From NCBI RefSeq assembly GCF_050320075.1, contig NZ_CP190018.1: a stretch of 64,000 bases of DNA, one strand, 5' to 3'. The position numbers are program-made. Position 1 is the stretch's first letter. Every line of letters begins with the position of its first letter. Positions 52,601 through 64,000 of the stretch are shown in pieces. The DNA is from Escherichia coli (GTDB lineage Bacteria; Pseudomonadota; Gammaproteobacteria; Enterobacterales; Enterobacteriaceae).

Positions 52601-55600
52601 GCCCGACGATTATGATGCCGGGCCACGGTCACGGGCATATGGAACACAGCAACTGGCGGATGATTAACTTGCCGGTTGGCCCGTTGGTGGACGGCAAACC
52701 GATTTATACGCTCTACATCGCGCTTTCGATCGATTTTCATCTTCATTACATAAATGATTTGATGAATAAACTTATTATGACCGCATCGATCATCAGCATC
52801 CTGATCGTCTTTATCGTGCTGTTGGCGGTACATAAAGGTCACGCACCGATCCGCAGCGTCAGCCGTCAAATCCAGAACATTACCTCGAAAGATCTCGACG
52901 TTCGCCTTGACCCGCAGACCGTGCCGATTGAGCTGGAACAGCTGGTACTGTCGTTCAACCATATGATCGAGCGTATTGAGGATGTCTTTACTCGCCAGTC
53001 CAATTTCTCAGCGGATATCGCTCACGAAATTCGTACACCAATTACGAATCTCATAACGCAAACCGAAATCGCCCTCAGCCAGTCACGCAGCCAGAAGGAG
53101 CTGGAAGATGTGCTCTACTCTAATCTCGAAGAGCTGACGCGAATGGCGAAAATGGTCAGCGATATGCTGTTTCTCGCCCAGGCCGATAACAACCAGCTAA
53201 TCCCCGAAAAGAAAATGCTCAACCTGGCGGATGAAATCGGCAAAGTGTTCGATTTTTTCGAGGCGCTAGCGGAAGATCGCGGCGTGGAACTGCGGTTTGT
53301 TGGTGACGAGTGTCAGGTTGCGGGCGATCCGCTGATGCTGCGTCGGGCGTTAAGCAACCTGCTTTCGAACGCCCTGCGTTATACGCCGCCCGGAGAGGCG
53401 ATTGTAGTGCGCTGCCAGACGGTCGATCACCAGGTGCAAGTTTCCGTCGAAAACCCCGGTACGCCCATTGCGCCCGAGCACTTACCGCGATTGTTTGACC
53501 GTTTCTACCGCGTTGACCCCTCCCGCCAGCGAAAAGGCGAAGGTAGCGGTATTGGGCTGGCGATAGTGAAATCGATTGTTGTCGCGCATAAAGGCACGGT
53601 TGCAGTAACGTCAGATGCTCGGGGGACAAGGTTTGTGATTATGCTGCCGGAGAGAGAGTGATTATTAAGTTCAAATTCAGGGCGTGGTGCATCACCTCCT
53701 GGTATTGTTGATCAACAAATTAGAGAAAAACTTATTAAACATATGAAATATCGAAGGCTTTTATTTTTCAAAGTTTCACGAGATGTTTGTATATGAAACT
53801 TAGTTAAATCTGTGTTTCTTCCAATTGTAGATCACAATGCCCTTTCTAAATTTTCATCGTTATAAACAAGCCATCTATCATATAAAGCAATGAATAATTT
53901 AATCGCGATTAATCATCATTAATTGTTATATTATTCACTCAATCTATTTATCAAGTGAATTTGATAAATTCCTAATTTAAAATATCCACTATTGAGCCAG
54001 TATTTAACAACGTTAAGATGTGCAATGTGCAGATCATGTTATCAGGGTGGAGCGGTAGCATATATTTCTTATGCAATCATTCATTTTAATAATGTTAATT
54101 GGATTATTTATTGCTGTGAATAAAAATATATTATGAATATTGGTTTAACTTTGCGTTTTTGTTACTCGTTGTGATATGCGTACCTGTCCTGAATAACGCC
54201 AAGAAACAAGAGGTTGAGCTTGTGATTATTTTTTTGACTGAACAGACACCCGTTTCTGTAAAGTAATATTTAAACAAAATTCTCACATAACCATAGCATT
54301 TTCTGTTCCTTCCCTAATAACGTCTGAAGTCGTCCCGCTTATCACATTATCCGCAGTTGTACGGTACGGATCATTATTCATTTTACTGGAGGTTGCTATG
54401 TCAACCGGATTACGTTTCACACTGGAAGTGGACGGCCTGCCGCCGGATGCTTTTGCGGTGGTTTCCTTTCATCTGAACCAGTCACTCTCTTCGCTCTTTT
54501 CCCTCGATCTCTCCCTGGTCAGCCAGCAGTTTCTCTCCCTTGAATTTGCGCAGGTGCTGGACAAAATGGCCTACCTGACGGTATGGCAGGGCGATGACGT
54601 ACAGCGCCGGGTGAAAGGCGTGGTGACCTGGTTTGAACTCGGGGAGAACGACAAAAACCAGATGCTGTACAGCATGAAGGTGCACCCGCCGCTGTGGCGT
54701 GCCGGTCTGCGCCAGAACTTCCGTATCTTCCAGAACGAGGACATCAAAAGCATCCTCGGCACGATGTTGCAGGAAAACGGGGTGACCGAATGGAGTCCGC
54801 TGTTCAGCGAGCCGCATCCTTCCCGTGAGTTTTGTGTCCAGTACGGTGAGACTGATTACGATTTCCTGTGCCGGATGGCGGCGGAGGAAGGCATCTTCTT
54901 TTATGAGGAGCATGCTTACAAAAGTACCGACCAGAGCCTGGTGCTGTGCGACACAGTCCGCCATCTGCCCGAATCTTTTGAAATCCCATGGAACCCGAAC
55001 ACCCGTACCGAGGTGAGCACCCTCTGCATCAGCCAGTTCCGCTACAGCGCACAAATCCGCCCTTCTTCCGTGGTGACCAAAGACTACACCTTTAAACGCC
55101 CCGGCTGGGCCGGACGTTTTGAACAGGAAGGCCAGCACCAGGACTACCAGCGCACGCAGTATGAAGTGTATGACTACCCCGGACGTTTCAAGGGTGCCCA
55201 CGGGCAGAACTTTGCCCGCTGGCAGATGGACGGCTGGCGAAACAATGCAGAAACCGCGCGGGGAATGAGTCGCTCGCCGGAGATATGGCCGGGACGACGA
55301 ATTGTGCTGACGGGGCATCCGCAGGCGAACCTGAACCGGGAATGGCAGGTGGTGGCAAGTGAACTGCACGGCGAACAGCCACAGGCGGTGCCAGGACGGC
55401 AGGGAGCGGGGACGGCGCTGGAGAACCATTTTGCGGTGATCCCGGCAGACAGAACATGGCGACCACAGCCGTTGCTGAAACCGCTGGTCGACGGCCCGCA
55501 GAGCGCTGTCGTGACAGGACCGGCAGGCGAGGAAATCTTCTGCGACGAACATGGTCGCGTGCGGGTGAAGTTCAACTGGGACCGCTATAACCCGTCAAAC

Positions 55601-61600: not shown

Positions 61601-64000
61601 TTACTTGGTATATGATGTCGTATATGGATTATCTTTCTAAAGCAAACTAATGGTAACTAAATATGACAAAAGTTCTTGAGAATGAAGAGTTCAATTCTAT
61701 ACATATAGACGAAGGTGGGGTTTTTAATAGTTTACGCTTTGAAAAATGTCTTTTTCAAAGCTGTAGCATACTTAGCAGAAAACTAAATGATAATAGTGAT
61801 TTACCTCCTCGCTTTGAAAACATTCTCATTAAAGATTGCACTGCTCTTAATTGTGTAAGTGGCCCAGCTTTTTTAAAAGATGTAACTGTTGAGAATTTTA
61901 GGACCGGTGATATTTTTCTTATTTATTCCACTATGTTTCATCATGTAACATTAAAAGGAAAGCTTGGGGCAATAAAAATAAATAAAAAAGATTATGTGCG
62001 TGACTATGATAGCCATCAAAGACATATTGAGATGATGAGAACGAGATTTTATTCTCAGATAGATTGGGCGATGGATATATCACAGGCGAAGTTTTTAAGT
62101 TTCTCCTGCAAAGGTATCCCAGCAAAATTAATTAGACGAGATAGTGAGACTCAATTTGTTGTAACGAGGAAACGTTTCAACTCTATGGATGTACTAAATG
62201 CAGAATTTAAAGGACAATACCCGTTTGTTTATTTACTGCTGGAGCTCTTTTTAGAATCAGATGAAGATGACCAGGTATTAGTTACACCATTAGGCAAAGC
62301 AAAAAAATATTATCAGCCAATTCTCGAAGGATTTAGAGAGTTAAGACGAGCAGGAATACTCGAACCTAACTAAATAAGGGTTATATTCCGCCAGGATGAA
62401 CGGCGTCTGGGCATAGAGTACGACCACCACAACCGGCCGGAAACACTCACCGACGTGATGGGCCGCGAACACCACACCGAATACAGTGGTCACGACCTGC
62501 CGGTGAAGATGCGCGGCCCCGGCGGTCAGTCAGTGCGCTTACAGTGGCAGCAGCACCATAAACTGAGTGGCCTTGAGCGCACTGGCACCGGCGCGGAAGG
62601 ATTCCGCTACGACCGCCACGGCAACCTGCTGGCCTGGACGGACGGTAACGGTGTTGTCTGGACAATGGAATACGGCCCGTTTGATTTGCCGGTGGCGCGA
62701 ACGGACGGTGAAGGCCACCGCTGGCAGTACCGCTACGATAAAGACACGCTGCAACTGACAGAAGTCATTAACCCGCAGGGTGAGTCATATCTTTATGTTC
62801 TGGATAACTGCGGCCGGGTGACGGAAGAGCATGACTGGGGCGGCGTGGTCTGGCGTTACCGCTATGACGCCGATGGCCTGTGTACCGCCAGGGTCAACGG
62901 CCTGGAGGAAACCATCCTCTACAGCCGGGACGCCGCAGGCCGCCTGGCAGAAGTCATCACGCCGGAAGGCAAAACGCAGTATGCCTATGACAAATCCGGC
63001 AGGCTGACGGGTATCTTCAGCCCGGACGGCACATCACAGCGCACCGGCTATGACGAACGCGGGCGGGTGAATGTCACCACTCAGGGCCGACGGGCCATTG
63101 AATACCACTACCCCGACGAACACACCGTCATCCGCTGTATCCTGCCACCGGAAGATGAACGCGACAGACACCCCGGTGAATCCCTGCTGAAAACCACGTA
63201 CCGCTACAACGCCGCCGGAGAACTGACGGAGGTCATTCTGCCGGGGGATGAGACGCTGACGTTCAGCCGTGATGAGGCAGGACGTGAAGTGCTCCGGCAC
63301 AGTAACCGGGGTTTTGCCTGTGAACAGGGCTGGAATGCAGCCGGTCAGCCTGTCAGTCAGCGCGCCGGACTTTTCCCGGCAGAAGCCACATGGGGCGGGC
63401 TGCTCCCCTCACGGGTACGGGAGTACCGTTACGACAGCGCGGGTAATGTGTCAGGCGTCACCAGCCGGGAAGATTACGGACGGGAAACACGGCGGGAATA
63501 CCGGCTGGACCGGAACGGCCAGGTCACGGCGGTGACAGCCTCAGGCACCGGGCTGGGCTATGGCGAAGGCGATGAGTCCTATGGCTATGACAGCTGCGGC
63601 TACCTGAAGGCGCAGTCTGCGGGCTGGCACCGGATAAGTGAAGAGACTGACCAGTATGCCGGAGGCCACCGGCTGAAACAGGCCGGAAACACGCAGTATG
63701 ACTATGACGCCGCAGGCCGGATGGTCAGCCGCATAAAACACCGTGACGGCTACCGCCCGGAAACAGAGCGGTTCCGGTGGGACAGCCGTGACCAGCTGAC
63801 CGGGTATTGCAGCGCACAGGGTGAACAGTGGGAATACCGCCACGACGCCAGCGGCAGACGGACGGAAAAACGCTGCGACCGGAAGAAAATCCGCATCACG
63901 TACCTGTGGGACGGCGAAGTATTGCGGAAATCCGGGAATACCGCGATGATAAACTGTACAGCGTACGGCACCTGGTGTTTAACGGCTTTGAGCTGATAAG

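Follow-up and report, generated by a model that had tools for sequence, protein, structure and literature searches.

What is encoded by the tight cluster of genes that follows cusS in a 64,000-nucleotide (nt) stretch of Escherichia coli contig NZ_CP190018.1 (hereafter the window, to whose positions the coordinates below refer), and does it hold anything that is not already known? The locus is very probably an island of auxiliary cargo genes that serves a type VI secretion system (T6SS), in which a VgrG spike, an Eag chaperone and a PAAR-Rhs effector are followed by a probable immunity gene. The site, the architecture and the delivery requirements of such an island have already been published for E. 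coli, and as an island it is nothing new. Judged from database searches, the only novel part is the pair formed by the C-terminal toxin tip of the Rhs protein and the gene directly downstream of it.

The open reading frame (ORF) listing places four close-packed genes on the + strand after cusS, which ends at 53661. They encode proteins of 633, 153, 1610 and 236 amino acids (aa) and are separated by spacers of 27, 19 and 22 nt. Shine-Dalgarno sequences stand before vgrG (GGAGG), eag (GGGAG) and rhs (GAGGG), and the ribosome-binding sequence of the 236-aa gene is weak. An earlier note on this DNA had described the first three as same-strand genes with short spacers and good Shine-Dalgarno sequences, and its sizes and coordinates were right. 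Its island interval, 53662-62373, does contain the genes that it described, but also a fourth that it did not (61663-62373), and the island runs to 13.27 kb. Its inventory of vgrG, eag and rhs was correct as far as it went, lacking the immunity gene, a displaced orphan tip and the insertion sequence ISEc1.

The first gene, vgrG (54398-56299), encodes a T6SS spike, as the earlier note had said. The 633-aa product scores 625.6 bits against TIGR03361 (curated cut-off 186.35), carries the Pfam domains Phage_GPD (residues 29-327, 4.9e-74), Phage_base_V (384-450) and Gp5_trimer_C (467-560), and matches Pseudomonas aeruginosa VgrG1 (PDB 4mtk) at 2e-95. Its last 73 residues (561-633) match PDB entry 3wit, "Putative Vgr protein" (1.3e-37), which we take to be the C-terminal domain of E. 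coli O157 VgrG1. The second gene, eag or eagR (56327-56788), encodes a 153-aa protein that covers model positions 1-127 of 127 of Pfam PF08786 (now DcrB, formerly DUF1795; 1.7e-27) and matches EagT6 (PDB 6xrf, 1tu1) at 1e-5, so that the proposed DUF1795/Eag identity holds. It sits between vgrG and the gene for a prePAAR effector, an order that is identical in two further loci (L003 and L004). By analogy with known Eag proteins, it is predicted to bind and stabilise the hydrophobic N-terminal segments of the Rhs protein.

The third gene, rhs (56808-61640), encodes a 1610-aa class I prePAAR PAAR-Rhs effector with the Pfam domains prePAAR_I (PF25799), PAAR, DUF6531, YD repeats and Rhs core. Its closest solved relative is Photorhabdus laumondii Tre23/Rhs1 (PDB 7pq5; 2e-258 over residues 254-1471). 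The prePAAR motif AARLGDEIQH, the hydrophobic region and the two PAAR motifs of the earlier note were all recovered. The prePAAR motif, read directly from the sequence, occupies residues 54-63 (56967-56996), lies within a Pfam prePAAR_I match (residues 54-100, 5.1e-5) and aligns with the prePAAR of Tre23. It is preceded by an extension of 53 residues (1-53; 56808-56966) that is conserved in the L003 homologue, whereas the motif of Tre23 starts near residue 30. The transmembrane region that follows (residues ~63-107; 56994-57128) was identified by hydropathy, aligns with transmembrane domain (TMD) 1 of Tre23 and is a predicted Eag binding site; Kyte-Doolittle values over 19-residue windows reach at least 1.4 only there and at residue 324. 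Two PAAR tetrapeptides were found in the protein, and its PAAR domain (residues 126-310; 57183-57737) gives Pfam PAAR_motif matches at 132-153 and 266-310 that are split by a 97-residue insertion. The postPAAR region (residues 311-390; 57738-57977) aligns with its Tre23 counterpart and contains a second hydrophobic helix at ~324-343.

Since Rhs residues 48-155 align with Tre23 27-139 and residues 253-419 with Tre23 138-314, the N-terminal order is that of Tre23, namely prePAAR, TMD1, PAAR and postPAAR, with an insertion at 156-252 within the PAAR domain (57273-57563) that has no Tre23 counterpart. The insertion is proline-rich at its start and then partly hydrophobic, and it is also present in the 80%-identical homologue of locus L003; a word-indexed protein search with it returned Escherichia fragments only, none of them annotated. 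This Escherichia-type insertion might add a function to the spike tip. Class I prePAAR effectors have been defined by one TMD region, an Rhs cage and an Eag partner (PMC7773334), and here AARxxDxxxH precedes the first TMD, followed by a single N-terminal TMD region, a PAAR domain and an Rhs cage. The same features, together with an adjacent DUF1795 gene, are found in RhsA-EagR1 of Pseudomonas protegens and Rhs1-SciW of Salmonella (PMC7773334), whereas in the class II effector Tse6 the motif falls within the first 15 residues; in the window Rhs it begins at residue 54 and the PAAR domain is interrupted.

Beyond the N-terminus, a YD-repeat shell spans residues 393-1470 (57984-61217), as delimited by motifs, YD repeats and the Rhs core, and is bounded by the aspartates D393 and D1466. 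It ends in DPLGL-x17-DPLGL (residues 1444-1470, with DPLGL at 1444 and 1466), which fits the DPxGL-x(17-18)-DPxGL pattern of cages of the Tre23/Rhs1 type. Counted along the alignments, D393 and D1466 correspond to D288 and D1338 of Tre23, at which mutation blocks self-cleavage and toxicity (PMC8636562). The protein thus has the motifs of a self-cleaving cage, and by analogy cleavage and its requirement for toxicity are predicted. In Tre23, EagR binds TMD1 and, as a second site, postPAAR, prePAAR-PAAR binds the gp5 tip of VgrG, and the toxin lies inside the shell (PMC8636562). Both systems share the N-terminal order and both autocleavage aspartates; they differ in that the tip of Tre23 is an ADP-ribosyltransferase unrelated to the window tip, in that Tre23 is encoded within a T6SS cluster whereas the island lies ~390 kb from the core genes, and in the 97-residue PAAR insertion and the longer extension before prePAAR of the window Rhs.

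Positions 1-53000 of the window contain no T6SS core gene, in agreement with the earlier note, whose supposition that the island depends on a T6SS encoded elsewhere is supported by the core cluster of a near-identical genome. The 11-kb stretch used as query is 100% identical to E. coli strain YZLc1-3, whose chromosome differs from the window by one mismatch in 1-50000 and one in 41000-64000 (overlapping stretches). This genome carries a core cluster at aspV (tRNA-Asp), comprising hcp, vgrG, tssB, C, E, F and G, tagH, tssJ, K, L and H, vasI, tssA, tssM and vasL; it is apparently intact, with no tss gene flagged as a pseudogene. Over residues 1-529 the island VgrG shares 93% identity with its aspV-cluster counterpart, and after ~530 the two are unrelated, a pattern expected of a spare spike with its own cargo-specific tip, and by sequence it appears compatible with the aspV baseplate. 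The near-identity of the first 530 residues argues that the loaded spike would be fitted to the aspV machine. The rhs gene inside the aspV cluster (L006 12418-18652) is itself frameshifted and followed by an ISAs1-family transposase gene, and the cusS island may therefore carry the sole intact PAAR-Rhs seen for this machine among the loci examined. None of the findings that the earlier note had named as fatal to its reading (a 633-aa ORF other than VgrG, a 153-aa ORF other than DUF1795, a genome lacking core genes together with an inactive locus) was borne out.

The cargo itself is less familiar. The toxin tip comprises the last 140 residues of the Rhs protein (1471-1610; 61218-61640) and belongs to an uncharacterised family with a weakly predicted PD-(D/E)xK-like fold. 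It had no match in Pfam, NCBIfam, PADLOC or the PDB sequences, the Pfam Tox-REase and VRR-NUC models included. A word-indexed protein search gave four homologues and an exhaustive search 79 representative clusters, in all of which (79/79) the domain is C-terminal, in proteins of 63-4504 aa. The five long members examined are Rhs or YD-repeat proteins and in another the domain follows a Hint domain; overall, the scaffolds range from Rhs/YD-repeat proteins (561-4504 aa) through a Hint-domain protein to small proteins. In an alignment of 53 sequences, numbered along the tip, G53, T104 and T105 are invariant and at least 90% of members share P26, A55, E57, D92, F93, D102, H112 and R115; the main residues correspond in Rhs numbering to E1526, D1561 (in SPDF), D1571, T1573, T1574, H1581 and R1584. 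A possible identity with the new Rhs nuclease of Salmonella Tennessee was considered and rejected, the latter being an HNH domain.

From the tip sequence alone, AlphaFold2 produced a model too poor to use (predicted local distance difference test, pLDDT, 37), and the prediction was rerun with the 53-sequence alignment, which yielded a model with a pLDDT of 92.6. After an N-terminal part that is helical, its core elements follow an alpha-beta-beta-beta-alpha-beta order, made up of helix 48-66, the three strands 74-76, 93-95 and 100-105, helix 109-118 and strand 128-133. E57 lies on helix 48-66, D92 where the second strand begins and D102 within the third, a placement that is consistent, though weakly so, with the positions of PD-(D/E)xK residues and makes E1526, D1561 and D1571 the candidate catalytic residues. 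Foldseek against the PDB returned influenza PA endonuclease (E ~0.1, weak); the strongest fold matches are the DNA endonucleases R.SwaI, PspGI, BamHI and AvaII, all fold scores being low, and the search against AFDB50 gave only unannotated relatives, then BsaWI, DUF559, TnsA and VRR-NUC proteins. Like PoNe, TseV/VRR-Nuc, the Tox-REase families and CdiA-CT EC869, the tip is a C-terminal module of polymorphic toxin scaffolds, and it would share with them the predicted core fold and acidic residues at the expected positions; it departs from these PD-(D/E)xK toxins in having no Pfam Tox-REase or VRR-NUC match, a threonine in place of the motif lysine and an immunity family without a match to any known family. 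On this modelling, we put a nuclease, whether a DNase or an RNase, at somewhat better than even.

Directly 3′ of the tip, the fourth gene (61663-62373) encodes the 236-aa protein, for which Pfam, NCBIfam, PADLOC and the PDB gave no family or structure match. Its full-length homologues (31-63% identity) are encoded directly 3′ of the same toxin domain in four other contexts, namely a small protein beside integrase genes (L002), a related vgrG-eag-rhs island (L003), another vgrG-linked Rhs (L009) and a Hint-domain protein (L010). The family is conserved, ~235 aa in length and, in these contexts, always adjacent to the tip domain. A link to one toxin domain that persists on different scaffolds is what marks a cognate immunity protein, and the gene is probably the immunity gene; a C-terminal toxin domain, varied scaffolds and an adjacent immunity homologue, the hallmarks of a polymorphic toxin-immunity pair, are all present. 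The N-terminus has no obvious signal peptide, as judged without a predictor, which would fit a cytoplasmic target. Over residues ~20-110 (61663-62000), hydrophobic residues and Cys/Asn recur in a pattern that recalls leucine-rich or solenoid repeats, and Pfam gave no repeat family. At L002 (5198-8127), a 268-aa toxin-domain protein and an immunity homologue lie between two integrase genes and near a Barstar-family gene; this pair may be a mobile toxin-immunity cassette that dispenses with the Rhs scaffold.

Taken together, tip and 236-aa protein could represent an undescribed effector-immunity family. Tentatively, and as less likely than not, we consider a toxin of restriction-endonuclease fold that has lost the canonical lysine (D-x-T-T), uses the conserved His and Arg on the next helix and acts on a substrate that is maybe not bulk DNA, while, separately, the PAAR insertion may add a spike-tip function.

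How the pair came to stand at the end of this rhs gene is suggested by the DNA that follows. A displaced orphan rhs fragment on the + strand (62383-64000) runs off the window end; it repeats 2033 nt of the rhs gene (nt 2380-4412, residues 794-1471) at 97.5% identity and with one gap, and the repeat stops exactly at Rhs residue 1471. The GC (guanine plus cytosine) content, 60% in the rhs core, drops to 41% within the current tip and to 34% within the immunity gene, and repeat and drop together constitute a classical tip displacement. The orphan is frameshifted by a one-base deletion at ~63915 (~22916 in L001, the region of the YZLc1-3 genome that was aligned to K-12) and is marked as a pseudogene by RefSeq. 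Past the window, the matching genome continues with the orphan tip, which has a HEVIH (HExxH) motif and is named a zincin-like metallopeptidase toxin by RefSeq, a 69-aa ORF, a short rhs remnant and ISEc1 (ISAs1 transposase, 417 bits). NCBIfam, which has no such model, gave no confirmation of the metallopeptidase assignment; the putative identification of the orphan tip as Tox-MPTase4 is backed by the HEVIH motif, by the RefSeq name and by the published PF15640 match of its counterpart z0702. The rhs remnant between the 69-aa ORF and ISEc1 (L001 24319-24498, Rhs residues ~476-535) has the look of a scar that another rearrangement left behind. Rhs elements of the classical kind, which bear C-terminal tips and an H-repeat, were reportedly described by Jackson and colleagues in 2009. 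The island is like them in that displaced tips come after a core repeat, in its ISAs1-family (H-rpt) end, in the insertion site and in its absence from K-12 and B; its leading tip is the one difference, and in substance it is such an element in a further strain.

The distribution of these parts was counted over 5426 complete E. coli genomes. The junction of cusS, leader and vgrG is at least 80% covered in 2637 of them and the 11-kb query in 1948, whereas the current tip and the next gene occur in 160 (~3%), in every case as a single chromosomal copy. The tip-immunity module shows at least 99% identity in 159 genomes, and the 25 best-matching genomes listed, which are of diverse host and source, share at least 99.9% identity over the 11-kb stretch. 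The earlier note was right that in K-12 cusS is followed by nfrB and nfrA, but to call the island strain-specific overstated the case, given a junction shared by 2637 of 5426 genomes.

Several published loci are counterparts of this one. In E. coli W and in Crooks, the site between b0570 and b0569 is occupied by an Rhs locus (rhsW3) that has three tips, and it is empty in K-12 and B (PMC3032704). Enterohaemorrhagic E. coli (EHEC) EDL933 carries z0707 (vgrG1), z0706 (DUF1795, eagR), z0705 (rhsF) and z0702 ("rhsG"), an MPTase4 fragment, with a 69-aa ORF (PMC7216683). In strain STEC004, according to the summary of Ma et al. 2017 given in PMC6730261, vgrGO1 and eagR are needed for delivery of the Rhs C-terminal toxin, and reviews and a preprint place the MPTase4 tip with cti1 among the delivered tips. 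The window island resembles those of STEC004 and EDL933 in gene order, in the DUF1795 chaperone between vgrG and rhs, in the cusS-adjacent site (O157 genomes), in the putative MPTase4 tip with a 69-aa ORF downstream and in the VgrG C-terminus that matches 3wit. It differs from them in its primary tip and immunity gene, which form another, unannotated module; the MPTase4 domain, which reviews suggest is the primary tip in STEC004, would here be the displaced, frameshifted orphan. A search of the literature yielded nothing relevant on cusS together with vgrG and rhs, nor on the RefSeq protein accessions, and an equation of this locus with the "RhsG/vgrG" of Hill's laboratory could not be established and was dropped.

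The boundaries of the island follow from the comparison with K-12. When K-12 is aligned with the matching genome, homology stops at L001 12637 (window 53636) and picks up again at 25909, which gives a length of 13.27 kb and puts the right end ~2.9 kb past the window end. The left junction lies within the final cusS codons (53638-53661), where the C-terminus changes from VITLPA in K-12 (CusS of 480 aa) to VIMLPERE in the window (482 aa); in K-12, nfrB starts 149 bp after cusS. Between cusS and vgrG lies an AT-rich non-coding leader of 736 bp (53662-54397, 31.5% GC) that contains no ORF of at least 60 aa and, from its composition, is presumed to be a promoter and regulatory region; an Rfam search of 53000-64000 found no match. 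Directly to the right of the island, past the window end, the nfrB of the matching genome (L001 26051-28288) carries an annotated internal stop. Elsewhere the window carries cit, ahpCF, ent/fep and cus genes, among which citR (11092-11993) is annotated as frameshifted in the matching genome.

From the homologues Tre23/Rhs1, RhsA and the STEC004 island, a course of loading, firing, cleavage and neutralisation can be proposed. In the producer, an Eag dimer would shield the hydrophobic segments of the Rhs protein, namely the transmembrane region that follows prePAAR and the helix within postPAAR, and prePAAR and PAAR would form a cone that caps the tip of the island VgrG trimer. The loaded spike would then be fired by the aspV core machine into neighbouring bacteria. 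[quoted passage not shown] The current tip-immunity pair would have arrived by recombination in the rhs core, displacing the older metallopeptidase-annotated tip that was left downstream as a frameshifted orphan.

Several observations weigh against this course, in which expression, secretion and killing are predictions by analogy. A scan of the leader for promoter-like sites and terminators stayed at chance level, and the related EHEC T6SS is reported to be repressed in vitro (PMC13141884). The literature places VgrGO1 of STEC004 under "T6SS1", while the aspV cluster resembles the EHEC type. The PAAR insertion may affect the capping of the spike, and the lysine position of the (D/E)xK motif in the tip is held by an invariant threonine (T1573), which makes the activity of the tip and its substrate uncertain. 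The AT-rich leader, with promoter-like sites at chance level, and the reported repression of the EHEC system would suit an island whose sequence is intact but which is silent or decaying, no longer deployed and kept only for the protection that its immunity gene gives against neighbours, and so would the decay around it: the frameshifted orphan tip, the rhs remnant by ISEc1, the internal stop in nfrB and the frameshifted rhs of the core cluster. Such a relic would hardly be expected to keep all four genes at full length with cleavage and prePAAR motifs intact, or its 11-kb stretch and tip-immunity module nearly unchanged across the genomes counted above; with the core tss genes unflagged as pseudogenes and the homologous STEC004 island active, we regard it as improbable.

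The missing lysine bears rather on what the tip does. The island could work as described and yet deliver an RNase (a tRNase or rRNase) or another phosphodiesterase of the same fold, in which the conserved H and R on the next helix may replace the lysine. CdiA C-terminal tRNase domains of the same fold do appear among the distant matches (ranks 60 and 44), all with low fold scores, but the strongest matches, low-scoring as they are too, are the DNA endonucleases named above, and a tip other than a DNase seems somewhat unlikely, while far from negligible. Much less probable, and indeed hardly to be expected, is that tip and immunity protein act mainly within the cell that makes them, in the manner of a toxin-antitoxin module. 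An orphan-bearing rhs locus of Salmonella is reported to behave in this way (PMC7043789), and the scaffold-free pair at L002 could be taken in the same sense, but the island retains a complete delivery set (vgrG, eag and an intact prePAAR-PAAR) and encloses its toxin in a shell from which cleavage is needed for release. The reading as a delivered effector of an auxiliary T6SS island is thus preferred.

For E. coli, the island is a clear case of how one tip displaces another at a known place in the chromosome. For the toxin family, the unannotated toxin-immunity pair could be tested in competition, after which 79 clusters now called "hypothetical" or "RHS repeat-associated core domain-containing" could be annotated.

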